Notes: generated from the sequence alone by a model not told the origin. 52,500 bases of DNA from Planctomycetota bacterium (GCA_038059695.1 JBBTIZ010000011.1:1-52500), one strand, 5' to 3'. Positions 1-17,312 are shown, counted from the first letter of the stretch. Numbers and translations are program-made.

Positions 1-53
1 CCGCTGGTCTTGGGGAATTTATTTATCTTGTTCTTTAACTTATTCTGGTTCAT
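1..53 (-). CDS. N-terminus of probable UvrC/GIY-YIG nuclease (runs off window)
   Basis: ATG at 53 gives MNQNKLKNKINKFPKTS(G), resembling the UvrC start before the GVY motif. Confidence 0.45.
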   Translation of the reverse strand, partial: MNQNKLKNKINKFPKTS

Positions 54-202
54 ATTAGTAACTATCCTGCCGCCAACGGGGTATAAATACAGCCGATATT
101 TACTACTGGCATTTTACCAAGATTATTATTGACCCCGTCAGCCATATTTAATATAATAAATATTTTGGTAATTATAAAAATATACTTGATTAAATTCAGT
201 TT

Positions 203-1684: not shown

Positions 1685-2510
1685 TTTGCTGATTCAGGCC
1701 ACCATCGGATGCCCCCACAATAAATGCACCTTCTGCGGGATGTATAAAGGCAAAAGATTCCGCATCCGACCGGTTGATGAAATTAAAGAAGATATCCTGA
1801 CGGCCCGGAAATTATACGGCGATGCCTTTGACAGCGCTTTTTTCCCGGACGGCAACACTATTATAATGAGGACTTCCCAATTGGAGGAAATCTTCACCTT
1901 CGCGCGCCGGACATTTCCTAATCTCAAGCGGATTACGCTCTATGCCTCGGCCAAATTCCTGAAACTAAAGTCATTGGCAGACCTGAAACGGCTCAAAGTA
2001 GCCGGGCTTAACCGGCTGCACAAAGGATTGGAAAGCGGGAATGACGAAATACTGCGGCGCATCCAAAAAGGCGCTGATTCCAAACTGATGATATCCACCG
2101 GCCAGAAAGTCAAAGCCGCCGGCATAGAATTAAGCGAATACGTCCTGGTCGGCATCGGCGGTGCGGAATTATGGGCCGAGCACGCCCAGGATACAGCCCG
2201 GGTGCTCAATGCAATCAACCCGGACTTCATCCGCCTGCGCACCTGGGTGCCGGTGCCCAATGCGCCATTATATGAAGATTATCAAAGCGGTAAATTCCAA
2301 CTGCTCTCGCCGCACCAAGCGCTCAAGGAAACCCGGCTGTTGCTGGAAAATCTTGATGTCAGCAGTTTATTCTTGAGCGACCATATTTCCAACTTTGTCA
2401 ACCTGTCCGGCCATCTGCCCCGGGACAAGCAAAACATGCTCGACAAGATAGACCGGGCATTAAAGATGGACGAATCATCATTCAGGTCTGAAATAATAGA
2501 GCACCTGTAG
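1638..2510 (+). CDS. Radical SAM protein
   Basis: YRPPSEA..QATIGCPHNKCTFC CxxxCxxC motif; likely start ATG 1638. Confidence 0.9.
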   Translation: MRYEDPIYRPPSEADSLLIQATIGCPHNKCTFCGMYKGKRFRIRPVDEIKEDILTARKLYGDAFDSAFFPDGNTIIMRTSQLEEIFTFARRTFPNLKRITLYASAKFLKLKSLADLKRLKVAGLNRLHKGLESGNDEILRRIQKGADSKLMISTGQKVKAAGIELSEYVLVGIGGAELWAEHAQDTARVLNAINPDFIRLRTWVPVPNAPLYEDYQSGKFQLLSPHQALKETRLLLENLDVSSLFLSDHISNFVNLSGHLPRDKQNMLDKIDRALKMDESSFRSEIIEHL

Positions 2511-2551
2511 ATAAAACAGGATTCACCACTGGCGCCAAAAGTCACAAAGAT

Positions 2552-2578
2552 GTCATTCCCGCGAAAGCGGGAATCCAG
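2552..2578. repeat. dRS3-like REP hairpin
   Basis: GTCATTCCCGCGAAAGCGGGAATCCAG; related nested element at 32203-32272. Confidence 0.75.
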
Positions 2579-2596
2579 AAGACCAAGATAAAACTA

Positions 2597-2733
2597 AACA
2601 GGGACTCTTAAGAGACCTTTACGAGACCGTATCTCAAGTCTCTTAGCAGTCTCGTTCAAGTCCCTGTTATATCTTATTCGTGCGATTCGTTCCATTCGTG
2701 ATATTCGTGTTCTCTTTCGTGTCCATTCGTGGT
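2597..2733. repeat. Inverted repeat (AACAGGGACT/AGTCCCTGTT) followed by an ATTCGTG short-repeat run
   Basis: Read directly from the sequence. Confidence 0.65.
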
Positions 2734-3563
2734 TACACAATATAGCCGATAACATACGGATTGAACGTGACACTCACGTTCCCGCTCGCATCCGTAAACG
2801 AATACTGAAAACTCCCGGCAGTTATGGGAACAATCACCTGTCCGCCGTAGACCTGTCCGACATTGCGCGCCTCTACGCCAATCGCATAACATTCCTGCTG
2901 GGTTGCATCGCGCCTCAAGCGGCAGTTAATAAAGCCCTGGGGCGGCGGGGCAATACTCTGCTGGACCAGTTCCACCTGCAGGAGCAGGGCCGTGGCCTCT
3001 GCCGGAATACCCGGATTCGGGGCGCTCGGCATCCAGTCCTGATTTCCGCTGACGATTAAACTGGTCAACTGGAGCCGGGTCGGCAGGAAGGTGATTTGAC
3101 TTCCGCCACCCGCGCCCGGCGCCAGCTTTTCGGCTGTCACCGCGCCATTCTGGATTTCCCCGGTTCCGATAGCATTATTGGCAATCTTTCCCTGGGTAAT
3201 TGTGTTGGTGGCGATTTTAGAGTTGGTGATGGTCGCATCCCTTATCTTCTCGGCTGTCACTGCCTGGTTTGCCAGCTCATCCGTATCCACCGCCCCGGTC
3301 GCCAGATGCCGGCGCTCCACGCAATTGTCTGCCAGCTTAGCCGCTGAAATGGAATTATCCGGTATGCCCACAGATGGCACATCATCGCCCAGCTTGGCCA
3401 GGGTCACGGCCTTATCGGCAATATCCTCGGTCTTGACCTGCTGGTTCTTGATATCGCGCGACTCGATGGTCTCATCCGCTATTTTATCAGAGGTCACCGC
3501 GCCTTCGGTTATCTGGGGCGTGGTCACCTGCCCGCTCCCGAAATATCTTGGATTGTATGTCAT
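2733..3563 (-). CDS. Tail-fibre-like protein with 10-residue (G/N)AVTxxKIA repeats and a C-terminal beta-rich domain
   Basis: GAVTSDKIA, KAVTLAKLG, QAVTAEKIR, ATITNSKIA, GAVTAEKLA repeats typical of phage fibre shafts. Confidence 0.65.
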   Translation of the reverse strand: MTYNPRYFGSGQVTTPQITEGAVTSDKIADETIESRDIKNQQVKTEDIADKAVTLAKLGDDVPSVGIPDNSISAAKLADNCVERRHLATGAVDTDELANQAVTAEKIRDATITNSKIATNTITQGKIANNAIGTGEIQNGAVTAEKLAPGAGGGSQITFLPTRLQLTSLIVSGNQDWMPSAPNPGIPAEATALLLQVELVQQSIAPPPQGFINCRLRRDATQQECYAIGVEARNVGQVYGGQVIVPITAGSFQYSFTDASGNVSVTFNPYVIGYIV

Positions 3564-3727
3564 ATAATTAATCCTTTCTACAACAGGATTTAGCGGATTT
3601 ATCTGATTTCCGTTTAATCCTGTTTAAGTACCCGGTGCGTTCCAGTAGGTACTCCCGACCAGTGTTTCGCACAGGGCCTGTTGTTAAAAACGGGATTCGG
3701 GGCGTCTCGAGCCGCCCTTTCATCCCT

Positions 3728-3785
3728 TTAGAGCCAGTTAGATTTTAGTCGTTACAGGCTCTTATCCCGACTATTTCGTCGGGGC
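3728..3785 (-). repeat. TAA-punctuated double-hairpin element, copy A
   Basis: Minus strand: GCCCCGA..TCGGGA TAA GAGCCTG TAA CGACTAAAATC TAA CTGGCTC TAA. Confidence 0.8.
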
Positions 3786-3791
3786 ACGACC

Positions 3792-4586
3792 TTACGGTGT
3801 CGTCAGTCCCACCTGCACATGCAGATACAGCCGCGCTTCGGCGTCAACCGCCCAGATGCAGAAACACTTATCCGCTCCGGTAGTCAGCACGAAGGCATCG
3901 CACTTGGCGATGTCGCGCAGACCGTTCAGGACCGAGGCGTTGAGCGTATTCTGGGCCAGCCGAACGCTATCCGTTCCGGCATAGTCCGCGAACAACCCGC
4001 TCTGGACCAGCCTCTGTTCCAGGGCCGCCTTGAGCACCGGCTCTTCGCCGTCTCGGGCGATGTCGTAAGGCGCGCCGTCCTGGTAATCGCCTTCAGCCAG
4101 CCAGCCGCTGGCGTGCATCTCGCCGACCATAAAGGCCGTAGCCACAGTCGCCGGCCCGCGTCCCCGGACCTTGTCACCGGTGAAACGCAGTGTGGTGGCG
4201 CCCATCTTCAGGGCCCACCAGTCCTTGGCGTTAGCCACGGCCGCCTTGAAGGCCGTTGCCCCGTTGCCCAGCTTCTCGGTCAGATTGCTGACCCATTTGC
4301 TGAACGACCCGGCCAGCTTCTTCTGGCGCAGGGCCTTAATGACCTCGGTAGTCCGCCCGCCCTTGCTCCGGTAAGCCGGATTCAGGACATTGGCGTACTC
4401 GTTGGTGGACGGATTAGCCAGTATGTCAAAGAACGCCCCATCGGTCGGCATCTTGGCCATCTGGCGGTCCAGCATCAGCTGGGCGCTGTTACCCAGATTG
4501 TCCGACCACTTGTTCGGCATATCGCCGGAAACCTCGCGGTTCGGCGCCGGGTAAAGCCGCAACTCAAATTTCTTATCAAATGCCAT
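3792..4586 (-). CDS. Hypothetical protein, candidate major structural/coat protein
   Basis: Clean GC-rich ORF with SD GAGGGGG; Ala/Lys-rich helical N-half with spaced KW motifs; no family recognised. Confidence 0.55.
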   Translation of the reverse strand: MAFDKKFELRLYPAPNREVSGDMPNKWSDNLGNSAQLMLDRQMAKMPTDGAFFDILANPSTNEYANVLNPAYRSKGGRTTEVIKALRQKKLAGSFSKWVSNLTEKLGNGATAFKAAVANAKDWWALKMGATTLRFTGDKVRGRGPATVATAFMVGEMHASGWLAEGDYQDGAPYDIARDGEEPVLKAALEQRLVQSGLFADYAGTDSVRLAQNTLNASVLNGLRDIAKCDAFVLTTGADKCFCIWAVDAEARLYLHVQVGLTTP

Positions 4587-4640
4587 CTTAATCACCCCCT
4601 CTCATTGGCTGTTACAGTTCAAATGTTAATGCATGCATGT

Positions 4641-4733
4641 TTACTTCTTGTTCCTCTTTTCCAGATAATCCAAAAGCATTTCCACTATCACCTGTATTAC
4701 TTTTCTCCAAAACCCAGACATCGCTTCGAACAT
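4641..4733 (-). CDS. 30-aa amphipathic peptide MFEAMSGFWRKVIQVIVEMLLDYLEKRNKK
   Basis: Strong SD AAGGAGGT 7 nt before ATG 4733; an in-frame upstream ATG at 4832 also has an SD. Confidence 0.55.
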   Translation of the reverse strand: MFEAMSGFWRKVIQVIVEMLLDYLEKRNKK

Positions 4734-4815
4734 TGCTACCACCTCCTTTTTAATAGAGCAATGACCGCGCAGCGCACACCACAGTGGACGCGTAGCGATT
4801 ATCATCCGCCAAAAA

Positions 4816-5202
4816 TTAGACATCAGCCTCATACAAATCACCTCCCATCCTCGGTTCTATCTCCTGAATCAAATCCCAATAACCCTTAGAAAACCGACGG
4901 CCTGTTCCGTATTTATCCAGCCACTCATCCCAGAGCACAAACATGAGCACCTCGATAATCTGCTGTTTCAGATGCGGATAGACCCGGGCCAGGGCTTTTA
5001 GATCCTTGGCGATATCCTGCCGGATAGCCGGCTTGTTGTCCGCGGCGAACTCCAGCAGGCGCTTAAGCGAGCCGAAACTGCGCAGGATATAGAGGTAGGG
5101 ACGGACCAGCCGGAACGACGCCTCGTAGAGACCGGGCTGGTCGTAGAACTGCTCCTTCAGGAACTCAAAACTCGTGTAACTATCTGCGTGTTTCCTTTTC
5201 AT
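4816..5202 (-). CDS. Hypothetical protein (128 aa)
   Basis: ORF with SD AGAGAGG and host-like codon usage. Confidence 0.7.
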   Translation of the reverse strand: MKRKHADSYTSFEFLKEQFYDQPGLYEASFRLVRPYLYILRSFGSLKRLLEFAADNKPAIRQDIAKDLKALARVYPHLKQQIIEVLMFVLWDEWLDKYGTGRRFSKGYWDLIQEIEPRMGGDLYEADV

Positions 5203-5218
5203 ATAAAACCTCTCTTTC

Positions 5219-5276
5219 TTACTCGCTGTTAAACTTTAGTTGTTACAGCGAGTTAGACCCCGCAGAATTGCGGGGC
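5219..5276 (-). repeat. TAA-punctuated double-hairpin element, copy B
   Basis: Minus strand: GCCCCGCA..TGCGGGGTC TAA CTCGCTG TAA CAACTAAAGTT TAA CAGCGAG TAA, then SD. Confidence 0.8.
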
Positions 5277-5278
5277 AT

Positions 5279-6082
5279 TCATTGTTTGTGGTTATCCAAG
5301 AAATTATAAATTTCATTTATCGGCACAACCCCAGCCATTGTGGTGACCAGTTGTCCATTGTAAACCTTAACCCATACCGCTATACCAATGACTTCATATG
5401 TCCGGGCGTCGTAGACAGGTCCACCTGAATTTCCTGGAAGTATGGGAGCGGAAATCTCGTAACATGAACCACTGAAGGCACTGAGGCACCCTGAAGAAGG
5501 CCGGGGCGGAAGACCCAAGGAGCATCCAACCGCCCATATAGGAGTAAATAGATACGGAGTATAATTCTGAGGCGCTAATTTTGCTTTTGTCACAGAGCCA
5601 CAGAGGCCACTGAGAAGAGCCAGGTCTTTTGCAGTATCTGTTATAACTACAGTTGCTTGTATTTCTTTTGTTACAGGATAAAAGAACTCTATTGTTACAC
5701 TGGATTCATCCTGGACGACATGTGCTGCAGTTAAAATATATATCTGTTCTGTGTTTTCAGTGTCTTCTGTGGTGAATACTACTCCTGAACCCGTCGAGCA
5801 TCCCGCAGTTATTCTTACTGTTGGATATAGAAGTTTCTCATATTCATCCTGATATGGATGCCTTGGTTTTTCAGGCGCCTTTATTATTACTATTTCTGTC
5901 TCTGTGGTCTCAGTGTCTCTGTGGTAAAAACTCGTCCCCAGGAGAACTATCAGTGCAATCCCTAATATCTGCGTTAATCTGCGTACCATAACCCACCATC
6001 CTTTCTTTATGGAGACGGTTGGCCTCTGCGGGCTCTGTGCCTCAGTGGCTAATCTTTTGTTTCTCCATAAGGAGGGGGTCAT
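5279..6082 (-). CDS. Membrane-anchored trypsin-like serine protease
   Basis: LTAAHV, DLALL and GNSGGP catalytic triad motifs; N-terminal hydrophobic helix; start uncertain. Confidence 0.85.
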   Translation of the reverse strand: MTPSLWRNKRLATEAQSPQRPTVSIKKGWWVMVRRLTQILGIALIVLLGTSFYHRDTETTETEIVIIKAPEKPRHPYQDEYEKLLYPTVRITAGCSTGSGVVFTTEDTENTEQIYILTAAHVVQDESSVTIEFFYPVTKEIQATVVITDTAKDLALLSGLCGSVTKAKLAPQNYTPYLFTPIWAVGCSLGLPPRPSSGCLSAFSGSCYEISAPILPGNSGGPVYDARTYEVIGIAVWVKVYNGQLVTTMAGVVPINEIYNFLDNHKQ

Positions 6083-6261
6083 ATGAACCCTTTTCCTATA
6101 AATCTGAGGCGAGTATTTTCGCTATTTTGCCATATTTATGAGGGAATATAAGGGGTTAAAGAAAATGCAAAAATCCGGGCAGGCCAAAAACGCAGGACTC
6201 GTTTTCCTCTAAGTGAGGGGGATAGGGGGTAGTACCCCACCCTAGCACCCTAAGGCCGGAC

Positions 6262-6535
6262 AGATAGCCTGATTTATCAGGGCATATAGCCGAAATGATT
6301 AGGTCAGATAGCCCGATTAGTCAGGCAGGATAGCCGAAATGATTAGGTTAGATAGTCCGATTAGCCGGGCCATATAGCCGAAATGATTAGGTTAGATAGC
6401 CCGATTGATTAGGTCAGATAGTCCGGTTGATTAGGTCAGATAGCCTGATTAGTCGGGCAGGATAGCCGAAATGATTAGGTCAGGTAGTCGGTCTGGTTGG
6501 GCCAGATAGTCTGATTAGTTGGGTCAGATAGCCGG
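6262..6535. repeat. Degenerate tandem array, 22-bp period, 12 full units plus a partial unit
   Basis: Units like AGATAGCCGAAATGATTAGGTC start every 22 bp from 6262 to 6526. Confidence 0.92.
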
Positions 6536-6597
6536 AAAATGAGGGGTGGATAGTGGGGATAAAGAACCGGCCGGCCGGCGCTATTCCGATTGGCGGC

Positions 6598-7263
6598 CTA
6601 TTTCAATAACTTGCGGGCCAGGTTGTGCAGTTCCGGATTGGCCAGGGCCAGGACCTTTTTCTTGACCACCCGCGAGAAATATTCCGTCTCGGTCTTAGTG
6701 AGTTTTTCGCCCTGCAATTTCTTCAGGAACAATGACTTTTGCCCGGCGGAGAACAACTGGGACAGGGCATATTCCAGCCCGGCCTCTGATTTCAGCGCCA
6801 TCAGGTCATTGAGATTTGATTCTGAACCCTTGAGATACCGGTTAAAGGTGTTTTTCAGCCGTTGGCCGGACATTGAATAATCCTTTAACTTTAAATCGTG
6901 ATTACGCGTCAATGAGTTGCGGAATTGCTCCAGTTTGCCCCTCAGTTCTTTGGTCAGCATTTGATGGAGTTTTTCGGCCCAGGCAAACTTCAGGCCCAGC
7001 GCCTGATACAGGGCCAGCGACATCAGTACCAGCAGTTTAAAATATACCCGGTCCGCCGGCTTCAGATATTGGCTGGTCCGGCCGTAAGAGAAGAGATTCC
7101 GCTCGGAACTGTTGGCCAGCGCCACCGGAAACCCCTCCCAGAGCCGCAGGTCGCGGGACTGCACCAGCCGGGCCAGGGTCAGATTGGCGTCCACCATTGA
7201 TTCCGGCTCCATTAACTTAAAACCCAGACTGCTTAGGTTGTTCAGCAATTCTTTGTCATTCAT
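6598..7263 (-). CDS. Hypothetical protein, probable partner (antitoxin/regulator) of the nucleotidyltransferase
   Basis: Overlaps the upstream gene; basic C-terminal HTH-like segment LFSAGQKSLFLKKLQGEKLTKTETEYFSRVVKKK. Confidence 0.6.
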   Translation of the reverse strand: MNDKELLNNLSSLGFKLMEPESMVDANLTLARLVQSRDLRLWEGFPVALANSSERNLFSYGRTSQYLKPADRVYFKLLVLMSLALYQALGLKFAWAEKLHQMLTKELRGKLEQFRNSLTRNHDLKLKDYSMSGQRLKNTFNRYLKGSESNLNDLMALKSEAGLEYALSQLFSAGQKSLFLKKLQGEKLTKTETEYFSRVVKKKVLALANPELHNLARKLLK

Positions 7264-7843
7264 TGATTAACTTCTCCTTCTTGAGGATACGCCAAAAATG
7301 CTCCAGATTCTTCAGCACGGCCTCTTCCGAGGTATCGTATTGAGCGGTGGCTTCGAACCGGCTCCGGAGCTTGGTGAAATCTATCTCCCTGGTTTTGGCC
7401 CGGATTAAGGCCAGGCAGTCGTCAATATCCACCTGAGTAAACCGAAAGAGCTTGCTGATAATCAGGTCATAATGATTAAGCATGCCCAGATAAATCCGGC
7501 TGAACTCCTTAACCAAAACGTGGTTACCCGGCTCCAGCGGCGACTCCAGAAGTTCGGTCGTATGAATCCGCTTGTACCGGAACAGGTCGAATATAAAACC
7601 ATCGTCCCGGCTCCAGCCGTAGGCCTTGACCGGCTTATAGCCCAGTTGGTCCAGGGTCTTAATCAGGTAGTCGTATTCGGCCTGGACCGGCACCAGCAAA
7701 TCAATATCCTTGGTTGAGGGCTTGATGCCCTGGAGCGTTAGGGCCGTGCCGCCGCAGGCAATCAGATGCACGCGCCGCTTGAGGAAATCGTTCCAGACCA
7801 TCAGCCGGCCGAACAACCCGCCTTTATCTATTCTGTAATCCAT
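7256..7843 (-). CDS. DUF6036/AbiEii-like nucleotidyltransferase
   Basis: ACGGTAL..TKDIDL pol-beta-type NTase motif; DLIISKL..D. Confidence 0.8.
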   Translation of the reverse strand: MDYRIDKGGLFGRLMVWNDFLKRRVHLIACGGTALTLQGIKPSTKDIDLLVPVQAEYDYLIKTLDQLGYKPVKAYGWSRDDGFIFDLFRYKRIHTTELLESPLEPGNHVLVKEFSRIYLGMLNHYDLIISKLFRFTQVDIDDCLALIRAKTREIDFTKLRSRFEATAQYDTSEEAVLKNLEHFWRILKKEKLINE

Positions 7844-7864
7844 AAACCTGAATAATTATTAATA

Positions 7865-7975
7865 TTATGGCCGTTACCCTCACAGGCTAGATTTTAGCTG
7901 GCCGAGAGGGTTACGGCAGGTTATCCCGCTACGATAAACCGCCTATCCCGTAAAACGTTACACATAAAGCGGGGC
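7865..7975 (-). repeat. TAA-punctuated double-hairpin element, divergent copy C
   Basis: Minus strand: GCCCCGCT..AGCGGGA TAA CCTGCCG TAA CCCTC..GAGGG TAA CGGCCA TAA, about 20 nt before ATG 7843. Confidence 0.65.
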
Positions 7976-8286
7976 ACAATATATTGTATAATTTAATACA
8001 ATCCTTTGTATGTATATATACAATAATTAAAACACTTGTCAAGTAAAATATTTATTTTTATGCGGGATTTTAACCGAATGGTGCCCCATCCGGGTCTTAA
8101 GGGCTGTTTCTCCAAAGCGTGGCCTTAAATGCCGGGCCAGCGGAAATTAGCCGGGCTGAAACAGACCATCCTGGCCGTTAGGCAATATGTCAGGTATTGA
8201 GGTATTAGGAAAACGATGCCTTGCGAAGTCGCAGCGAAGTCCCGATTATTTCGGGGTAATGCAGATAAATCAAGGGTTATAAAATA

Positions 8287-8301
8287 TGTGGTCTGTCCCA
8301 C
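8287..8301. repeat. RAYT-type end motif, perfect inverted partner of 9993-10007
   Basis: TGTGGTCTGTCCCAC vs GTGGGACAGACCACA. Confidence 0.7.
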
Positions 8302-8326
8302 TGATGTGCGATACTTACTCTTTCAA

Positions 8327-9846
8327 TTATATAGCAGATTCCTCAACCTCAAATTCTGGGACCTCTACCGAATTTCCCTTACCCCAAAGTATCTCCCAAA
8401 TTAACCACTTAGTAAGAAATGATTCTATTTTGAATATAGTTTTAGCATCTTCTTCTAGAACTTTTTCTCCTTTATGTAAGAATCTGTTTCTTTTGTTTTT
8501 CATTTGTATGATTAAACTATATTGCTTAAAGTTTATCTGGCCAGAGAGGCTAAGAATTTCTACTGCTCTGTCGGCTGTATAATTTTTTAGTTTATTTTTC
8601 CTGTCTCCAATAATTTCAGTAGATTTTTGTTCCAGGAACTTATCCCACAAATAATTTATAAATTTTTCAATAACCATCCATCCCATTATAAACGTTTGAT
8701 TGTATTCGGATCCTTGTAAATAAGAATATGACTCCAATAAATAAATCAGAAGCTCTGCTATGGTCTCATTTTTTGTAAAAAGTTCGGCTTGCTTTATTGT
8801 TTCTTTTACCTGTTCTTCAGAAATCTCTCTTGTTATATTAAAATCATAGCCAGTCCTTTGCTTAGGCGTAAATTCACCTTCAAATGCGGTGGTTCTTAAT
8901 GAAACATGCATCGGCATGCTTCTACTGCCTATTTCTGATTTATCTGGAGATATTTCTGCTGTGCCTAATTCTAATTCTTTTACAGCGTAAAATGGGATAT
9001 TGAGAAGTAACGCCGTAGCCATTATTTCATTCAACATCTTTAAGGCTTGAGTTTTCTCGTTAACGCCAATCGCAATAAATCCATTTTCGTTAACAACAAT
9101 CTTACATCCTCTGTATTCTATATCAAAAGATTTTTTAGGCCACATGAATACCCTGGAATCAAACGCTTTTTCTTCAAAACTTGGATTGGGCTTTTTGCCA
9201 ATCCAAATTGGGGGATAGAAGTAAGTTCCAAAACCTTTTATTGAAACTGGAGGAGTTTGTTGAGGGGCAGAAACTGGTTGGTTCTGAGATTTTACTCTAT
9301 TTGTTGCATAACCTATGATTTGACTGATTATTTTTTTGTATCGAGTTGCTGAACATTCCCGCTTGCTTTCCAGGAAAAAGAATCATCTGTAAGTCTACGT
9401 TTCATTCCAATTCCAGCTTGATACAAGTTCTGTTTAGAAAATATAGTGATAAAGGCTCCTCCTTTGAAGCTTCTCAACAAGTCAATAAAAAGCCCTTCAA
9501 GTAACGTAGCATATATTCGCTTAGATTCATTTTTGCTAATCCGTATTTCGTCTTCCGGTAGTTTCCGCTGCCATTTTTCATCTTTTAATTTTTCCTTTAA
9601 TTTTTCTGATGCTTCATTTGAGTCGCTTTCATTAACGATTATATCTAAATCAGGCTTGTCTTTAAAGTGCGTAAAAATGAAAAGTTGATCCTGTATCATT
9701 AAACCGTGATTCTTAATAACAAAGACTTCTACTTGTAAAGGAGAACTTAAATTGTCAAGGTTGCTTACATTTTCTTTGTCTTGTTTCGAAAGTTTGGCAT
9801 ACTCTGTACGAAAATCTTGAACTAAATGTCTAATCCAATTTTGCAT
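8327..9846 (-). pseudogene. AT-rich HEPN-domain gene split by a -1 frameshift at an A7 run
   Basis: ORF 9328-9846 ends ACA AAA AAA TAA; the -1 frame is open from there into ORF 8327-9145, which carries RNRFLH (HEPN RxxxxH). Confidence 0.7.
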
Positions 9847-10063
9847 AATAACCTTAATTCGGGGGACACCATACTCAATTCCCCCCTACCCCCTAACCTC
9901 CGCGTGTTCATCCTTGGTCAGGCAGATATAGGTGTCTTTCTTGTCTTTAGCGATTCCCACTCTGCGCTTACGTCCTCGTGGGACACGTCCTCGTGGGACA
10001 GACCACACATTTTCTTTCCCTTTATTTACGCGGGTTCTAAGACGCAGTTTCGCTAAAACGCCC

Positions 10064-10654
10064 CTATTTTTTAGAACCCTGCTCCTTCCGGTAAATTGCT
10101 TGTTCAACCTCGGTCAGGCAGAAGGCGTATTTTTTAGGGCCAGCCGCCTCGGCGGGGTTTTCAAACATCCTCAGCTTGCCCTCGCAGGCCAGCCAGCCGA
10201 TACCCATCGCTGTATAGTCCTGCTTCGCCTTTATCCGTTTTTGTATCAGGTCGGATGTCAGGCGGCATTCTTTGGCGGTTTTGCCCGCCTGACCTTGCCC
10301 GTCGGGCAGGTCTTCCGCGCCTAAGCAATGCCATATCTGGCCGGCAGTTTCACCGACCTTGTGGCGGAACTCTTTCGCTGATTGCCTTTCTTCATCGGTC
10401 ATTTCATAGTGCAGCTCCCAGGCCGGTTCGTTATAGGGCGATTTTTCAAGATAGGCGGCCCGTCCGATTTTGACCAGTTCATCCATTTGTTCCTTTATCA
10501 CTTCAGGGCTCAGCCCGGTTTGGTCAGCTATTCGCTGGATAGTCCAAACGCTTTGTTTATAGAGGTAGTCCCATACTTTACCGGCGGCCTGGCCGATAAC
10601 TACTTTCGGGTCTACTTCTTTCCATTGCGGCTGTTGAACGGTTTTCTTCGGCAT
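10064..10654 (-). CDS. Tandem DUF2582-like winged-helix protein
   Basis: IGQAAGKVWDYL and VGETAGQIWHCL..MGIGWLACEGKL; SD GGAGGAG before ATG 10654. Confidence 0.7.
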   Translation of the reverse strand: MPKKTVQQPQWKEVDPKVVIGQAAGKVWDYLYKQSVWTIQRIADQTGLSPEVIKEQMDELVKIGRAAYLEKSPYNEPAWELHYEMTDEERQSAKEFRHKVGETAGQIWHCLGAEDLPDGQGQAGKTAKECRLTSDLIQKRIKAKQDYTAMGIGWLACEGKLRMFENPAEAAGPKKYAFCLTEVEQAIYRKEQGSKK

Positions 10655-10770
10655 ATTTTTCTCCTCCTGTTTATCTGCGCAATCAGCGTCATCTGTGGTT
10701 GCACTGATGATAATCTGGAGACACATACTACTCATTGGCACTATACCTTTATTCGCCTGTTAAATCAACC

Positions 10771-11250
10771 TTAATCCTCTTTTTTATGGCCTTTCTTTTT
10801 CTTGTCGCCACTCAGGCGCTTTTTGTTCTTTTCATACATCTTTTCCAGGCCCAGAAGCCAGTGGCTGATGGTATTCGGGCTTTCGCCCAAATCAGCGGCC
10901 ATGGCCTTTATCACCCCGCCGCACTTGGCCAGCGATTTCAGGCGTAACAGCTCCTTTACTCCCGGAAAATTCAGGCATTGGATGGCCTGGAATACGCCGA
11001 TTAATAATTTGCGGAATCCCTCGTGCTTGCGCTCAGGTAAGTCCGAGGACAATTCGCCGTCGTTCTTGGCCTGGAATATGTCGAATTTAGACGGTCCGGA
11101 TGCTTTGCGGCGTGATGGGCCGTTCCGGGGATTTTTGGTTTCCCCTGGCTTATCTACCGGTTTTTCAGGACGCTGGTCGCTCTCATCAAAGAAGTTTTCA
11201 TCATTGCGTGCCGGTTCCTTAAAGTTGTTATCCGGAGTGGCACAACATAT
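10771..11250 (-). CDS. Hypothetical protein with a C-terminal HTH-like segment (ATA start or frameshift)
   Basis: Frame is open from ATA 11250; VIKAMAADLGESPNTISHWL looks like an HTH. Confidence 0.5.
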   Translation of the reverse strand: MCCATPDNNFKEPARNDENFFDESDQRPEKPVDKPGETKNPRNGPSRRKASGPSKFDIFQAKNDGELSSDLPERKHEGFRKLLIGVFQAIQCLNFPGVKELLRLKSLAKCGGVIKAMAADLGESPNTISHWLLGLEKMYEKNKKRLSGDKKKKGHKKED

Positions 11251-11570
11251 TTAATCGCCTCCCCCCAAATCAGGGGGAACCAAAAGTGTCAGGTCATCCG
11301 GGTCAATCCGGACGGCCGCCGTTTTTCTGGTTTCTCCTTTCTAGTTTTAATCTGGGGAATCTGTGTAATCTGTGGTTCCCCTCCATATATATGAATGTTT
11401 GAGCACCCCTAAAAACTGCAATCAATCTCAATTTTTCTCAGTATTTATGCGGTTTCCAGGGCGTTTCCCTCCACTTATATAAACCAAAAAGAAGACGAAA
11501 AGTTGCTATGAAAATGAGATTTGTAAGCAGATTTAGCGGATGGGTAATCAGGTGTATTTATCCGCACGTT

Positions 11571-11835
11571 TTATTCCTTAGACGCAGTTAATTGGGCAAC
11601 GGTGGGGATGCCGGCCGAGCCCGCCGGCAGGATGCCCAGCCGGACGTAAATCGGATGGATGGATTTTCTGATTTTGCCGAGTTGAGAGGCAAAGACCAGC
11701 GCGGCCAGGATGCAGACCCCGCCCCCGATAGCCAGGATGGCCGGCGCGCCGATGACGCTGGCCACGCTACCGGCCAGCAGGATGCCCAGCGGCATGATGC
11801 CCATAAAGGCCAGGGTAAACAAGATCATAACCCGA
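11571..11835 (-). pseudogene. 3' fragment of an MFS transporter
   Basis: RVMILFTLAFMGIMPLGILLAG..PIYVRLGIL last TM helices; 5' part replaced by TAATCTGG repeats. Confidence 0.75.
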
Positions 11836-11896
11836 GATAATCTGGGATAATCTGGGGATAATCTGGGATAATCTGGTAATCTGGGGTAATCTGGGG
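11836..11896. repeat. Six tandem TAATCTGG(G) units
   Basis: Read directly; the units copy the outer tip of the adjacent inverted repeat. Confidence 0.85.
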
Positions 11897-12097
11897 ACAC
11901 AATACTAGTTAATTTATTGCACACTCCTAAATAATAAGTTACAATAATAACACTATGGCACGATTAGCCAAAGCCGTTATTCCGGGGATTCCGCACCATG
12001 TTACCCAAAGAGGCAATCGCAGACAACAGGTATTTTTCCGAGATGCTGATGACATATAGGTTAAACAGGAGGAAAACTAGTATTGTGTCCCCAGATT
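11888..12097 (+). mobile_element. Miniature RAYT derivative with perfect 23-bp terminal inverted repeats
   Basis: AATCTGGGGACACAATACTAGTT / AACTAGTATTGTGTCCCCAGATT; internal ORF 11955-12059 MARLAKAVIPGIPHHVTQRGNRRQQVFF is a RAYT N-terminus. Confidence 0.85.
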
Positions 12098-12099
12098 AA

Positions 12100-12336
12100 G
12101 CAGATATTTCTCATATAGTAGGTTATGTTGATGCGTTTATTTTTGAGCCACATTTTTTATACCCAGACTTAATTGTTTTTAGTCCATTAGCAATAGAAAA
12201 TGAACAGGAAAATTCTCTTTTTGCGTTACTTGCTCATGAGTGTGCGCATGTTGTTCTTGGACATGCAATAGAATCGCCTGTTGAGCCAGAACCGGAGGCT
12301 GATGCCGTAGGAAGTTATATATATACTTTACGTTAG
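12100..12336 (+). pseudogene. Start-less zincin metallopeptidase (HExxH) C-terminal fragment
   Basis: Manual translation: ..LFALLAHECAHVVLGH..EPEADAVG..TLR*; begins at the IR boundary. Confidence 0.65.
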
Positions 12337-12340
12337 TAAA

Positions 12341-12868
12341 ATGAAAGGAACGATTACTATGATAAACTGGAAACGGTTAATGATAACATTGCTTATAGTA
12401 ATAAGTGCTAGTTGTATTTTGTTAGTGCCTAGTATTTGTCGCGGCGTAAGAGCAATAGATATTAAATGCAGGCTAAATTTATTAGCAATTAGTGATGGGT
12501 TGGGTAGATATTTTGAGACGAATAAATATTATCCTCAGCAGATAGAGGAAATTAAGCAGTATTTATTGGAAAGAGGATTAAATGCAGAATTAATATTTAA
12601 ATGCCCTGCGGACAAAGATAAAGTCAATAAAATAGACTATGAATATTTTTCTATTAGTCGTGCTGATGCGACTGAAACAACGGTACTAGTATATGAAAAA
12701 CAAAACAATCATTATATTGGTTGGTGGGCATTTGGATTAAAGGCATACAATGCCAGACATGTTTTAATCAGTGATGGCAAAAACAAGGATATAAAATTAT
12801 ACTCGGATGACGATTTCAAGGTACTATTAGACAAACATCAACGCAAGCCGGATAAGGAAAATAAGTAA
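12341..12868 (+). CDS. AT-rich exported hypothetical protein (pseudopilin-like N-terminus; possible immunity protein)
   Basis: N-terminal TM helix, then CRLNLLAISDGLGRYF..YP. Confidence 0.6.
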   Translation: MKGTITMINWKRLMITLLIVISASCILLVPSICRGVRAIDIKCRLNLLAISDGLGRYFETNKYYPQQIEEIKQYLLERGLNAELIFKCPADKDKVNKIDYEYFSISRADATETTVLVYEKQNNHYIGWWAFGLKAYNARHVLISDGKNKDIKLYSDDDFKVLLDKHQRKPDKENK

Positions 12869-12914
12869 TCCAAGATGATTTCTATTTACGATAAAGAAGA
12901 CAATCGGTCGTATA

Positions 12915-13032
12915 GTGCCAGAGGGACACTTCCCACCGCCGGAATCCCTTTACTTTCCTATCCCGCGTGTCTTGTGCCAGAGGGACACTTCCCACCGCCG
13001 GAATCCCTTTACTTTCCTATCCCGCGTGTCTT
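12915..13032. repeat. Exact 59-bp tandem duplication containing the RAYT end
   Basis: 12915-12973 equals 12974-13032. Confidence 0.9.
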
Positions 13033-13748
13033 TCTTGTTATAAAATCCCTTCCCAGTAACTCCGCCATTCGGTTTACGAATCTCTTATCACCTATGGGCT
13101 TGCCTGTTTTTGTCGCCTTCCGGATTAAATTCGTCTCGGATTCTTCCGCTTCTGCTTTGATTGTCTTAAGATACTCCTCCCGTTCGCCCTCGTCAAATAA
13201 ATCCTCGGTTAATACATCATCTTTAATCCCTTTAATGTGCGCCACCGCGCTGGAATACGGGTAATCCTCTATTTCCTTTACTATCCGGGCTCGTTTCGGA
13301 TTCCGCTCAATGTACCGGGCCACGACCCATAAATACGGCTCTTCATCTATAATACAAGAATGAAAACGGCTTTCCCATAATCGCCCCGTCCTTTTATATC
13401 GCCTGTTAATGTATTGCGTATAAGACAAACTCACCCCCTGCATCATCTTGGCAAATGATTCTTCTTTACCGGGACGAACCAAGAGGTGAACATGGTTAGT
13501 CATCAGGCAATAAGCCAGGATAGAGACATCCCATCTGGTGGCGTATTCCTTTAGCAGGTCTAAATACCTAGCGCGTGTTTCCTGGGCAAAGAAGACCTTT
13601 TGCTTGTTATTACCTCTTTGAATGACATGATGAGGAAAATCCACGGCGACCGCTCTGGCAACTCTCGGCATAAGAGGTACTTTATAAAAACTATGTCTTA
13701 TGTGTCAAGTAAATTAAGTGTTGTAGCCGGTGGGAAGTGTCCCTCTGG
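12977..13748 (-). mobile_element. RAYT element bounded by 21-bp inverted repeats
   Basis: CCAGAGGGACACTTCCCACCG (12977-12997) / CGGTGGGAAGTGTCCCTCTGG (13728-13748). Confidence 0.8.
13009..13671 (-). CDS. REP-associated tyrosine transposase (Y1 HUH)
   Basis: HHVIQRGNN, YCLMTNHVHLL (HUH), YIERNP, YPYSS motifs. Confidence 0.92.
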   Translation of the reverse strand: MPRVARAVAVDFPHHVIQRGNNKQKVFFAQETRARYLDLLKEYATRWDVSILAYCLMTNHVHLLVRPGKEESFAKMMQGVSLSYTQYINRRYKRTGRLWESRFHSCIIDEEPYLWVVARYIERNPKRARIVKEIEDYPYSSAVAHIKGIKDDVLTEDLFDEGEREEYLKTIKAEAEESETNLIRKATKTGKPIGDKRFVNRMAELLGRDFITRKTRGIGK

Positions 13749-13835
13749 GCGTTGGTTCCACCATCTGCCACGGCAACATCAGTACCACCAGGATAGTATT
13801 GTTAATCTGGGGACACATACGAATTTTTCTTCCTG

Positions 13836-14984
13836 CTACCCGAACTTCTTTTTGAGATGGGTTTGATAAGTCCGAAAATCAGTTGTTATCTCGGCTATGG
13901 TCCTCCCCGGGAATCGGCTGATAAAGGCCCGGGCTATTTCAAATGCCACGACTGCCTCGCCGATGACTGACGCGGCCGGGACCGCGCAGATGTCGCTGGA
14001 TTCTACCTGGGCCTTGGCCGGACGTTTGGTTCTCAGGTCTATGGTCGGCAACGGTCTTTTCAATGTCGGAATGGGTTTTACCGCGGCCCTTACTATTATA
14101 TTCTCGCCACTGGTCAACCCGCCTTCAATCCCGCCGGCATAGTTGGTCATCCGCTTCCAGCCGCCATATTTGTTTAGAATAGGCCTATTATTATGTGTGG
14201 CAAATAAATCCATCACCTGCGAGCCGGGTTTATCCGCATAGCCGAATCCCAGGCCGATTTCTACGGCTTTAACGGCCGGGATAGCCATTATTGCCTGGCT
14301 CAAACGGGCATCAAATCGGTCCTGCCAATGGGTATGGTCGCCCAGGCCGACCGGGATATTGAATCCGGCTACCTCAAAGCAGCCGCCCAAGGTGTCGCCA
14401 TCATTTTCTGCCTCGCTTAAGAGATGCTTCCATTCAGGGATAACATTTTTGTCAAGGGTGTAGAAAGATGTTTGTCTGCCAGTCCTCCAGTTAACCGGTC
14501 GGCCGGTTGGATGGTCTGCCTGAACAGAGCCGATTTGGGTTGTATAGCCAAACACCTTAATCGCAAAGTAATCAAGGAGTGATTTAGCAACAGAGCCGGC
14601 GATGACGCGTCCGACTGTGGTCCGGGCGCTGGCTTGCTCAGCCCCGATGCGGCCATCCGGAACCAGGAACTTCATTGCCGCAGCCAGGTCAATATGACCG
14701 GGCCTGACCCTGGTTATGGGCGGTAAGAAATCAAGGGTGTTTTTCTGGTTCCGGACCTGGATGGTGATAGGCGCGCCGAGGGTTTTGCCATTCTTCAATC
14801 CGCTCAGGATTTCTATTTTATCTTTTTCTAAAGACATCCTGGGTCCGCGTCCGGCGCAGGCCCTGCGGCGCTTGAGTTCGGAATTGATTACTTCTTCTTT
14901 GATGCGGACACCGGCCGGGAAGCCGCTGATAACGGTAATGATGGCCTGGCCGTGCGATTCGCCGGCTGTAATATATTCAAGCAT
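13836..14984 (-). CDS. aroC: Chorismate synthase
   Basis: TAGESHG, RPGH, ASARTT, GGIEGG, KPIPTL motifs. Confidence 0.93.
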   Translation of the reverse strand: MLEYITAGESHGQAIITVISGFPAGVRIKEEVINSELKRRRACAGRGPRMSLEKDKIEILSGLKNGKTLGAPITIQVRNQKNTLDFLPPITRVRPGHIDLAAAMKFLVPDGRIGAEQASARTTVGRVIAGSVAKSLLDYFAIKVFGYTTQIGSVQADHPTGRPVNWRTGRQTSFYTLDKNVIPEWKHLLSEAENDGDTLGGCFEVAGFNIPVGLGDHTHWQDRFDARLSQAIMAIPAVKAVEIGLGFGYADKPGSQVMDLFATHNNRPILNKYGGWKRMTNYAGGIEGGLTSGENIIVRAAVKPIPTLKRPLPTIDLRTKRPAKAQVESSDICAVPAASVIGEAVVAFEIARAFISRFPGRTIAEITTDFRTYQTHLKKKFG

Positions 14985-15005
14985 GCATTATTTTGTTAGA
15001 ATCTC

Positions 15006-17312
15006 TTATTTCGGATTAGCCGGAGCCGGCGGCGGCAGCGCCTTCTGGGACTCGCCCCTGGCATTTTCCAGTTTCTCCTTTATCTCCGGCGCCAGATTAT
15101 TGCGGGAAATCAGTTTCCCGGTCTCTTCTATTACCTTATTATATTCTTTCATTTCGGAATATAATGACAGTTGCTCCAGTTTCAGCGACCACCATTCCGG
15201 CGACGACTCCTTCTGGTCTTCCAGAAGCGCAATGCAGGATTTCAGGGCCTGGTCAAACTTCTGGAGTTTCTTGTAGCAACTAATCAGGGCCAGGGTAAAT
15301 TCCGGCTTATCGGCGAAATCCTTCACCGCGTCTTTCAGATAATCCTCGGCCTTGGTATATTCACCGGACTCCATCTGAAGCAGGCCGAGCATCCCTTTGT
15401 TCAACGATATTCTCGTCTTAAATTCATCGGCCTTGAACTGCTGGTTCTTGGCAATCTCCTCGAGCATCAGGATGCCGTAGGAGGTCAATTTCAACTCCCT
15501 GAGTTTGGAGACCGCCTCCTCCATCAAATCCAGATTATCCGCCGTAACGGCCAGGAGGGCTTTCCAGGCCGAACCCGCGAGTTTCTCGTCTTTCTCATTC
15601 AGTATTACAATCAGGGCCGGAATGCCGGCGGCATCCTTGATTTTACCCAGGGCTTCGGCTGAGAGTTGCCTGGTGCGCGTGTCTTTGTCATTAATCAAAA
15701 TCTTGATAATATCCGGACCGGCCGCCTTGTTGCCCAGTTTGCCCAGCGACTCTATGGTAATCTGCCTGATATCCATAAACTCATCAGCCAGGAGTTTGGC
15801 CAGTTGCGGCGCGATATCCGGGACATTGATTTTACCCAGACAGTTTGAGGCCGACCAGCGGACGCGCGGTCGGGCATCATTTATAAAAGGCAGGATTTCC
15901 GGCGCGCTGGACGGGTCTTTGATATCGCCTAGGGCATCAATGAGGGACTTGATGAGTTTCTCGTCATTCTGGTACCTGATTGACTTGAGGCATTCGTGGA
16001 ACTTGGCCACGGCCGGTTTGCCTTCCGGGCCGAAGGCGCCGATGGTTTCTACAATCACGACCACGATTTCCGGCGTCTCCCTATCCAGCAGTTCATCCAG
16101 CAGTTCAATCAGCGGGAGGACCACCCTGGGGTTTTTAATCCGCCTCAACGCAACGGTTATCTTATTTTTAATGGCGGTTGATTCCTTGGGATTATTGAGG
16201 ATGCCCAAGAGGGGGTCAATCGACGATTCGTCGCCCAAGTCACCCAGAATATCAAATAGTAGAGTGCGGAATTCATCAACCGACGCATCTGTCCCCGCTT
16301 CGCGGGGCTTGTATGCGGTTATTTCATCCCTGAGCCGGGGCAGTATCTGCTTGGTCTTTTCTTTATCCAATGTCTTTATCTGTTCTAGGACATATTTCTT
16401 GAGCATTATGGCCTTGTCGTCCAGGGCCGAGGTCAGCAACGAGATTTCAGCCGGGGCATCGGCCAGCCGGCGCGCCTGTTCCAGCCGCATCTTCAGGATA
16501 TCTATCTTTAACGCCGTAATGGCGTCGCCATACTGCCTGATAAGTTTATCTTTTTCCTGTATCTGGTTTTTATATTCAATGATGGACTGCTCCAGCCATT
16601 TTTCCCGCGACTGTTTGCTGTTGACCTTCCACCAGGCAATCCATTCTTCCCGGGCGGCAAAACTTTGCCTGGTCAGGATGTTTAGGGTATTGAGAATTTC
16701 GGTATTGAGGTCGCTCTTGCGGTTGCTCAACAAGCCAATCAAGAACGGGATGCTCCGGATGCTCGGCACAAAGGACAGCCCTTTGACCAGATTCTGGCGG
16801 ACCGGCTCGGGCTTTTCGGGCTGGTTCAATTCCTTGAGGATGGCCTTGGCCACCTTTTCCTCGTCGGCATTGCTGAAGACCGCAAAGACATAAGGATGCA
16901 GGGATGCCTTGCCGGTTTCCAGGATGACAATCATTTCATCAATGAACAGATAATCGCTCTTATGTTTAGCCAACGCCTTAAGGACGGCTTTGGCGGCTTC
17001 CTCGTTATCGCTGGCCAGCACGGACGAGATGATTTTCCTGGCTTTTCTGGTATTCAGGAGGGCCAGCCGTTCGGCGGCAACATCCCGCCCGGGCCCGGCG
17101 GATTCGTAAAGCCGTGTTTTGAGATGTTCCGGCTCGCTGTAAACCCCGGCTTCTTTTATCTTGTCATCGGCCAACAGTTCCCCTTCGCGGTCCGGAGAAG
17201 GTATCTTAACGCCGCCGCTCCCCCAGCAGGAAATAATCAGGCAGGGAAACACAATTACGCCAACTACCAATAATCTTTTCAGCATATTAAACAGTCCTGA
17301 CCGCTCCGGCAT
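15006..17312 (-). CDS. HEAT-repeat/TPR protein, probably a lipoprotein
   Basis: Signal peptide with Cys; repeated ALGxI/LGKI HEAT units; C-terminal TPR. Confidence 0.8.
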   Translation of the reverse strand: MPERSGLFNMLKRLLVVGVIVFPCLIISCWGSGGVKIPSPDREGELLADDKIKEAGVYSEPEHLKTRLYESAGPGRDVAAERLALLNTRKARKIISSVLASDNEEAAKAVLKALAKHKSDYLFIDEMIVILETGKASLHPYVFAVFSNADEEKVAKAILKELNQPEKPEPVRQNLVKGLSFVPSIRSIPFLIGLLSNRKSDLNTEILNTLNILTRQSFAAREEWIAWWKVNSKQSREKWLEQSIIEYKNQIQEKDKLIRQYGDAITALKIDILKMRLEQARRLADAPAEISLLTSALDDKAIMLKKYVLEQIKTLDKEKTKQILPRLRDEITAYKPREAGTDASVDEFRTLLFDILGDLGDESSIDPLLGILNNPKESTAIKNKITVALRRIKNPRVVLPLIELLDELLDRETPEIVVVIVETIGAFGPEGKPAVAKFHECLKSIRYQNDEKLIKSLIDALGDIKDPSSAPEILPFINDARPRVRWSASNCLGKINVPDIAPQLAKLLADEFMDIRQITIESLGKLGNKAAGPDIIKILINDKDTRTRQLSAEALGKIKDAAGIPALIVILNEKDEKLAGSAWKALLAVTADNLDLMEEAVSKLRELKLTSYGILMLEEIAKNQQFKADEFKTRISLNKGMLGLLQMESGEYTKAEDYLKDAVKDFADKPEFTLALISCYKKLQKFDQALKSCIALLEDQKESSPEWWSLKLEQLSLYSEMKEYNKVIEETGKLISRNNLAPEIKEKLENARGESQKALPPPAPANPK

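Follow-up and report, generated by a model that had tools for sequence, protein, structure and literature searches.

TIRtron ends abut truncated accessory genes in a strain-specific island of a Planctomycetota bacterium

Results

TIRtron tips and their census

We analysed a stretch of 52,500 nucleotides (nt) from a Planctomycetota bacterium, hereafter the window. It is contig C11 of a metagenome bin (G000; 92 contigs, 1.27 Mb, 55% complete, 48% GC) that originates from groundwater metagenomes. Between positions 8287 and 13820, end motifs with a GGGACA core lie beside unrelated pieces of genes. A preliminary description had assigned these motifs to a tyrosine transposase of the kind associated with repetitive extragenic palindromes (REPs), a RAYT, and had proposed that the system captures foreign genes. 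We find that the elements are TIRtrons, which carry a RAYT-like Y1/HUH transposase (TIRYT) and terminal inverted repeats (TIRs) and belong to TnpA-Y1 subclass 2.1, a kind already described. The initial observation is largely right, and the proposed capture function is a minority reading. The region is probably a pile-up of TIRtrons, of the sort formed by insertion sequences, in a strain-specific hot spot, together with recombination and tip-anchored deletion. For comparison we used the genomes G001 and G002 (same genus) and G005 (same family) and the metagenome contig L020.

Every coordinate at which an end motif had been claimed holds a GGGACA[CG] core: 8293-8299 (minus strand), 9863, 9980, 9995, 11894, 12085-12091 (minus), 12923, 12982, 13737-13743 (minus) and 13810. 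The window has 22 copies of GGGACAS, compared with 9.97 (standard deviation 2.84) in 100 shuffles, none of which reaches 22, and ten of these copies fall within 8293-13816. All four copies of the word GGGGACAC in the window fall inside the region, and the 1.27-Mb assembly has 18. The degenerate core GGGGWSAS from the literature shows no window-wide enrichment (9 copies, 12.55 expected). A repeat search, together with full elements that have the same ends on contig C90 and in relatives, identifies the cores as the tips of the inverted repeats of TIRYT elements and hence as true element ends, in agreement with the earlier proposal of RAYT-like ends. A census of the assembly with four end patterns gave 32 tips, nine of which lie inside these 5.5 kb; other clusters are found on C90 (six) and C87 (three). 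On C87, an AT-rich gene pair at 92-948 that resembles, by eye only, a nucleotidyltransferase and a HEPN protein adjoins the three tips, two of which lie in a 38-nt tandem duplication.

In the accessible parts of the literature, subclass 2.1 corresponds to RAYT Group 1 (PMC6006769; PMC5581495) and is equated with the TIRYTs of Di Nocera et al. (PMC6006769). TIRYT genes are described there as bounded by terminal inverted repeats in place of REP hairpins, with GGGG[AT][CG]A[CG] as the consensus common to the repeats (PMC6006769; PMC3733652). The GGGACA-core end motif is therefore the published TIRtron signature.

The transposase

The region's only intact Y1 gene lies in an intact B-type TIRtron at 12918-13748 (minus strand), where 38-nt inverted arms (12918-12955 and 13711-13748) enclose a TIRYT gene at 13009-13671 (220 aa). 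Its product matches Pfam PF01797 with 69.1 bits (cut-off 23), and the A-type copy on C90 does so with 57.2 bits. The B-type protein scores 73.8 bits with the REP-associated model NF047646, under the cut-off of 80, and 25 bits with NF033573, the model for IS200/IS605 TnpA, under the cut-off of 55. It is nearer to the REP-associated model than to the IS200 model, yet stays under the former's cut-off. Its motifs NHVH, LWE and YIERNP are those listed for subclass 2.1 in Table 1 of PMC6006769. All nine TIRYT proteins aligned have NH[VI]H and YIE.NP, and the three E-type proteins among them have LLE instead of LWE or LWQ. About 90 residues extend past the core, where a C-terminal helix-turn-helix (HTH; Bac_DnaA_C, HTH_23, HTH_28) is expected, and give no Pfam match at E <= 1. 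A sequence search of the PDB with the TIRYT returned nothing at E <= 0.01.

Two other families do not fit. A RAYT in the strict sense (REPtron) is disfavoured by the lack of GT[AG]G-footed REP hairpins in seven ends, by the count of 32 tips in 1.27 Mb and by the NF047646 score; none of the seven ends folded has a significant hairpin (best z = -2.07). An IS200/IS605 TnpA is disfavoured by the NF033573 score, by a Y---NP rather than Y---Q motif and again by the lack of hairpins. Reads of two samples contain a second allele of the B-type TIRYT (13219-13617) at about half the local depth, so at least one further copy must be absent from the bin.

Five end subtypes, one intact element

The subtype letters A to E were assigned in this work; a sixth type, F, was found only outside the region. 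The tip letters are GGGGACAC in types A, C and D and AGGGACAC, one base from GGGGWSAS, in type B. For type E, relatives have GGGGACAG and the window has GTGGGACAG. Protein clades follow the TIR types: the proteins of types B, E and F share about 60% identity among themselves, and those of A and C share 61% with each other and about 40% with the remaining types.

Along with the intact B-type element, the region contains one internally deleted copy and four solo TIRs, so that five TIR subtypes are represented. The deleted copy (11887-12098, plus strand) is A-type and resembles a miniature inverted-repeat transposable element. It has perfect 24-nt TIRs (11887-11910 and 12075-12098) and a 33-codon 5' fragment of the TIRYT gene (11955-12056), its middle having been lost, and it is 96% identical over 99 nt and 100% identical over 39 nt to the full copy at C90:32163-32985. 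That full A-type gene (C90:32225-32330) differs from the window copy by about 65 nt inserted behind codon 11, which shift the frame; an alternative ATG within the insert restores an open reading frame (ORF) of 226 aa.

A solo C-type TIR of the left-end type lies at 9856-9880 (plus strand, tip at 9856). The same 25 nt recur unchanged at C4:7663-7687, ahead of a TIRYT 5' fragment, and a full C-type element is present in G002 (L012). The solo D-type TIR at 13802-13825 (plus strand), with copies on C40 and C8, is 10 nt from the stop codon of aroC. The other two are E-type and form an inverted pair (8266-8301 and 9993-10028; 36 nt, 86% complementary). The arm at 9993-10028 (minus strand) has its tip at 9993, faces left and is a right end, matching E-type right ends at 37 of 40 nt and left ends at 26-27. 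The remnant at 8266-8301 (plus strand) has its tip at 8301 and faces right; it matches the left and right ends of the full E-type elements of G001 and G005 similarly (29-32 of 40 nt) and could be either.

TIRYT genes are multi-copy in the relatives and frequently stand at contig ends. Insertions are also nested: an A-type element lies within an E-type left end on C90, and an E-type element lies within another TIRYT gene at G001:C23:1-2600 (L007), with about 70 nt of the host gene on both sides. The latter locus has eight tips in 2.6 kb.

Genes that end at tips

Two truncated genes flank the A-type copy. An accessory MFS_3 gene is represented by a 3' fragment at 11555-11834 (minus strand), comprising its last 88 or so codons plus 16 nt and aligning over 280 nt, at 81.8% nucleotide identity, with the corresponding end of a gene in G001. 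In translation, 11571-11834 is 75% identical to residues 352-444 of the G001 protein, itself a match to MFS_3 with 200 bits. The fragment alone has no Pfam match, and the remainder of the gene was not found in the 55%-complete assembly. The gene is accessory, being present in one of five relatives. Homology ends at 11834/11835 (about codon 352), exactly where an array of about six tandem 10-11-nt tip units, GATAATCTGG, starts (11835-11897, plus strand), so that the claim of an MFS 3' fragment at a tip is borne out to the nucleotide. At the other edge, homology runs 16 nt beyond the stop codon and gives out next to a tip-like unit (11543-11555). In G001, a D-like tip lies upstream of the gene and a tip unit lies downstream. 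We rejected this locus as a clean test of a cassette between tips, given that the site is variable in all five genomes and that none of them offers an empty site. Only G001 has a tip there.

On the other side of the A-type copy is a HExxH fragment (12100-12335, plus strand). Its start is absent, as had been described, and its frame is closed by a TAA at 12097-12099 within the A tip. It has a partial match to Peptidase_M48 (22 bits, profile positions 48-84 of 186), and a search for longer homologues found none. It is followed by a gene for an AT-rich, membrane-anchored protein of 175 aa (12341-12868, plus strand), which has no family match in profile scans; homologues with 32-35% identity occur in G002 and G005, where the HExxH neighbour is absent. 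The A-type copy thus has a different truncated gene on each side, which a simple insertion cannot produce, and a tip-anchored rearrangement must have taken place. In these two genes the breakpoints do coincide with tips, and all four tip-abutting gene fragments seen retain their 3' end.

The AT-rich HEPN gene of the preliminary description is indeed AT-rich (33.7% GC) and belongs to a family with an RN...H motif, but it is not a fragment. A frameshift divides one complete gene of about 505 aa (8327-9846, minus strand) into two ORFs, 9328-9846 and 8327-9145. The 172-aa upstream ORF matches residues 1-170 of the best relative, P0002, from Met to Met (53% identity, E 5e-54), and the 272-aa ORF matches residues 232-471 or so of proteins mostly about 485 aa long (587 relatives in an exhaustive search). 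The two frames overlap, which places the frameshift at 9331-9382. A run of seven A ends the upstream frame at about 9331-9340, and contigs of two other samples agree with the window there. The gene may be a pseudogene or may be read by slippage. Its motif reads RNRFLH, and an alignment of 30 relatives shows R447, N448 and H452 to be near-invariant or invariant. HEPN-type Pfam matches among 30 members are all sub-threshold (DUF4145 in 10, HEPN_RiboL-PSP in 8, HEPN_Swt1 in 5); DUF4145 we take to be HEPN-like. A single-sequence predicted fold of the 272-aa ORF was too poor for use (pLDDT 39), and an Atlas search with the ORF returned unnamed clusters only. PADLOC matched neither this gene nor the 175-aa protein. 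Word-based searches returned only the gene itself, and a single-protein search of genome contigs found no locus. A search with a six-sequence alignment found two loci in other genomes, and tips adjoin neither. In the window, the gene sits between tips, 9 nt from the C tip on its start side and 25 nt from the E tip on its stop side.

A 53-bp scrap of unknown origin (13749-13801) does lie between two tips, close to the 54 bp first reported. Its supposed fibre-like origin found no support, as blastn-short and tblastx against the assembly match only the scrap itself. At 18 testable tips outside the region, jumps in GC content show no excess over random sites (Mann-Whitney p = 0.097).

Tandem duplications at the core

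We scanned 64 tips (32 in the assembly and 32 in 11 loci of relatives) for tandem duplications, with 3000 random sites as a control. Short duplications overlap 21 of the 64 tips, against 144 of the random sites. A duplication end falls within -5 to +7 nt of the core end at 14 tips and at 59 random sites (2%), a difference of about 11 times. The duplicated unit consists of a few outer-flank bases and the core. The region contains three such arrays: at 9970-10000 (plus strand; 15 nt, 2.1 copies, outer flank plus tip core), at 11836-11897, where the tip units beside the MFS fragment lie, and at 12915-13032 (plus strand), where 59 bp of the B-type end are duplicated, taking in the last codons of the TIRYT gene. 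The excess of core-ending duplications therefore predicts the TIRYT cut site, and their footprint suggests that the enzyme would nick at or just after the core.

Contiguity

Logan contigs from samples X2 and X3, neither of which is thought to be the source, agree letter for letter with the window over 7211-10252, 11380-11915 and 12069-12944, although these contigs are themselves short-read assemblies. Read depth is even at about 60-80, and the AT-rich parts have the depth of core genes. A contig from a second study spans 13485-13784. The main junctions are thus bridged by contigs of two other samples, and misassembly there is unlikely. The two refuting conditions set out in the preliminary description, breakpoints that miss the motifs and a misassembly, mostly do not hold; five stretches remain unbridged. 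Two lines of read evidence were set aside. The second-study runs cannot report on strain variation, since their contigs, at about 3-6x, are identical to the window and their small word shares reflect depth, not cargo. Read joints such as 9875>13803 are not taken as deletions; they have 20-letter sides with extra letters between, and we read them as other genomic copies of the tips.

The island and its other genes

The region is the right part of a strain-specific island of 11.3 kb (2511-13835) between a radical-SAM gene (1593-2510) and the convergent aroC (13836-14984). The two flanking genes adjoin, roughly 22 to 235 bp apart, in G001, G002, G005 and L020. Because they abut in all four relatives, where the island is absent, 2511-13835 is an insertion. 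Scans found no tRNA in 1-16000 and no Rfam family in the island. No recombinase, such as the intI integrase of an integron cassette array, turned up among the island ORFs in general profile scans; attC was not searched for.

Within the region's middle part are a DUF2582 winged-helix gene (10064-10654, minus strand; Pfam PF10771, 59.5 bits) and a probable, short 3' fragment of a DUF2582-like gene (9886-9960, minus strand), in which 9902-9926 shares 88% identity with the 3' end (10098-10122) of the intact gene beside it. A small gene at 10771-11052 (minus strand) has only weak HTH matches and a paralogue at C4:9380-9697 (92.8% nucleotide identity over 111 nt, plus tblastx). That paralogue belongs to a second mosaic in the bin (C4:7575-9700). 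Its C-type left end is abutted by 75 nt from the 3' part of a fibre-like gene and followed by a TIRYT 5' fragment, which is cut by an F-type tip; then come a 3' fragment and an intact copy of the paralogue.

The left half of the island begins with a module (2733-6082) of a fibre-like repeat protein (276 aa), two unknown proteins (267 and 128 aa) and a membrane-anchored trypsin-like protease, followed by a DUF6036 nucleotidyltransferase pair. The module recurs at C19:7500-9800, at 50-52 kb of C4 and on C42, C23, C62, C18, C84, C9 and C40, and the fibre-like gene has ten or more paralogues. A similar protease set adjoins the TIRtron pile-up on C23 of G001. At 2434-2900, reads are about 30 times as deep as the local level. 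Internal repeats (tblastx self-matches offset by multiples of about 44 nt) lie at 6257-6611, between the protease gene and the gene after it. Short repeats at 8217-8257 and 11346-11379 have about 13-16 copies elsewhere in the assembly, and one at 11379-11424 has two. One of these three families opens with a tip unit, TAATCTGGGG, followed by 9-nt repeats, and the radical-SAM/aroC spacer of G002 contains members of the same kind.

Discussion

Formation of the mosaic

If the region is a pile-up, it would be the decayed right half of an insertion hot spot in which at least five TIRtron subtypes landed. Each TIRtron would be an insertion-sequence-like element of about 0.8 kb, with a TIRYT gene under its own promoter, TIRs of 20-38 bp and a GGGGWSAS-type core at the tips. 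One element would have stayed intact, one would have lost its middle and four would have shrunk to solo TIRs. The neighbours (the HEPN-family gene, the HExxH piece with its membrane protein and the MFS fragment) would be ordinary accessory genes gathered at a permissive site. Junctions would fall at tips because each was made by insertion, by recombination between dispersed copies, or by deletion or duplication from the nick site at a tip. The different genes on either side of the A-type copy could be explained without capture, because recombination between copies and tip-adjacent deletion are ordinary for insertion sequences. The multiple copies, the internal deletion, the nested insertions and the second B allele are all insertion-sequence-like traits. 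By analogy with IS608, ISDra2 and the E. coli TnpA-REP, TIRYTs presumably act on single strands, nick at or next to the core and form a covalent tyrosine intermediate.

Several points weigh against this account. It presupposes recombination between copies, for which no reciprocal product was found. The listed contigs leave 10252-10569, 11067-11380, 11915-12069, 12944 to about 13480, and 13784-14074 unbridged. Since the assembly is only 55% complete, neither the remainder of the MFS gene nor the second B copy could be seen. The gaps around the HEPN-family gene are tighter than chance intergenic insertion suggests. Tip-like units on both sides of the MFS fragment (11543-11555 and 11835-11897) and of its G001 homologue fit mobilisation by alternative ends.

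The last two points also speak for gene capture or shuffling, which we consider unlikely on balance. In such a process, a TIRYT would nick the core and use an alternative tip when its proper end is damaged or a solo tip is near. Gene-sized flanking pieces would then travel, and arrays of promoterless toxin, immunity and defence cassettes would build up. The MFS fragment could be a relocated accessory gene piece, flanked as its G001 counterpart is, and the HEPN-family gene would be a cargo closely bounded by tips. The retained 3' ends of all four fragments point the same way. At three loci of relatives, two same-type tandem TIRtrons enclose 0.87-1.36 kb of cargo with a GC content below that of the locus. 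One such cargo, which follows an RHS gene of at least 1947 aa, comprises an ORF without a start, a small ORF for a membrane protein and an RHS-repeat fragment; a CHAP domain is encoded in another. In addition, a published hypothesis ties the same subclass to procA diversification (bioRxiv 10.1101/2020.03.09.984088). However, no cargo was found twice with the same tip boundaries, and cargo lies outside the tips rather than within a pair of outward tips. The HEPN family is tip-linked at neither of its two other loci, and GC jumps at the 18 other tips are not significant. The site beside the MFS gene varies in five of five genomes, with a tip in G001 only, and the authors of the procA preprint later wrote that strong evidence is lacking both for and against causality. 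A dedicated capture or cassette-shuffling role, as first suggested, is therefore not supported.

At the RHS locus, L008 (G005:C14:10000-17993), about 350 bp separate the end of the RHS protein (at least 1947 aa; RHS_repeat 136.7 bits, DUF6531) from an F-type TIRtron, and orphan-like cargo and then a second TIRtron follow at the contig end. H-rpt elements are insertion sequences embedded in rhs orphan arrays.

A more specific proposal, which we hold to be a little more doubtful still, is that TIRYTs cut single-stranded DNA at the 3' edge of the core, pair any tips, solo and non-cognate ones included, and move promoterless pieces between hot spots. Such enzymes would be a single-strand, HUH-driven counterpart of integrons and ISCR elements and would build toxin, immunity and defence cassettes into arrays. 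Their products would then be the MFS piece between tip units and the toxin-like cargo between tandem elements by the RHS gene of a relative.

Alternatively, the solo TIRs could be REP-like elements that the host keeps as terminators or as sites of RNA or DNA structure and that a domesticated enzyme spreads, so that their position reflects function. Solo TIRs are intergenic and near stop codons, as is the one after aroC, and the accessible part of PMC3733652 describes TIR singles, dimers and clusters for TIRtrons. This is quite improbable, however, in view of the missing tip hairpins, the 32 tips in 1.27 Mb where REPs number hundreds, the multi-copy and decaying elements, and the truncated genes that abut tips. 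An artefact, in which the metagenome assembler joined unrelated DNA at short shared repeats, is very improbable: although the source is a fragmentary bin (92 contigs, 55% complete), joints at repeats occur in other contigs and five stretches are unbridged, single contigs of two other samples cover three junction stretches without a difference, AT-rich and core-gene depths agree and another study's contig crosses 13485-13784.

This locus and its relatives offer a compact natural test set for the role and biochemistry of subclass 2.1 Y1 enzymes, with five cognate enzyme and TIR pairs, a deletion derivative and solo ends. If capture takes place, it would be a new way to assemble defence and toxin cassettes; if not, the locus is a clean example of how TIRtrons scar a genome.

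Comparison with known systems

IS91/ISCR elements and Helitrons, which are also HUH elements, take neighbouring DNA along when they fail to stop at an end, and their rolling-circle enzymes are of other families. No read-through product of that kind was seen at the present locus. IS200/IS605 elements (IS608, ISDra2) are likewise small Y1 elements with no evident target duplication and, presumably, single-strand 'peel and paste' movement. In contrast, the present elements have true TIRs instead of subterminal hairpins, and Y---NP instead of Y---Q. The REPtron of E. coli (TnpA-REP/RAYT, with REPs and bacterial interspersed mosaic elements, BIMEs) shares an HUH Y1 enzyme between inverted repeats that are also found alone. 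The REPtron is single-copy and domesticated, whereas the TIRtrons here are multi-copy and decaying, have no GT[AG]G-footed hairpin and score below the NF047646 cut-off.

The procA-TnpA-REP of marine picocyanobacteria belongs to the same subclass and also occurs as full and truncated transposases amid short variable genes; a role in diversifying recombination has been proposed for it (Laurenceau et al., bioRxiv 10.1101/2020.03.09.984088). For that system as for the present one, a causal role is a hypothesis. Theirs has no inverted repeats and one cargo family, whereas the TIRs here are plain and the cargo is heterogeneous.

As far as the accessible parts of PMC6006769 and PMC5581495 describe it, TnpA-Y1 subclass 2.1, or RAYT Group 1, resembles the present family in its NHVH, W[EQ] and YIELNP-like motifs, its C-terminal extension, its lack of REPs and its wide, patchy distribution. 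The median length given in PMC6006769 is 238 aa, compared with 220 aa here, where the C-terminal part has no Pfam HTH match, and the mean copy number of 1.9 in its Table 1 looks lower than that of the present bacterial family. The closest likeness is to the TIRtrons and TIRYTs themselves. As in the available description (PMC3733652), a RAYT-like Y1 gene has TIRs instead of REP hairpins and a GGGGWSAS tip core, the TIRs occur as singles, dimers and clusters, and several distinct TIRYTs coexist in a genome. The present locus differs from that part of the description in having five TIR subtypes within 5.5 kb, a copy with an internal deletion, junctions with truncated genes exactly at tips, and frequent short tandem duplications that end at the core.

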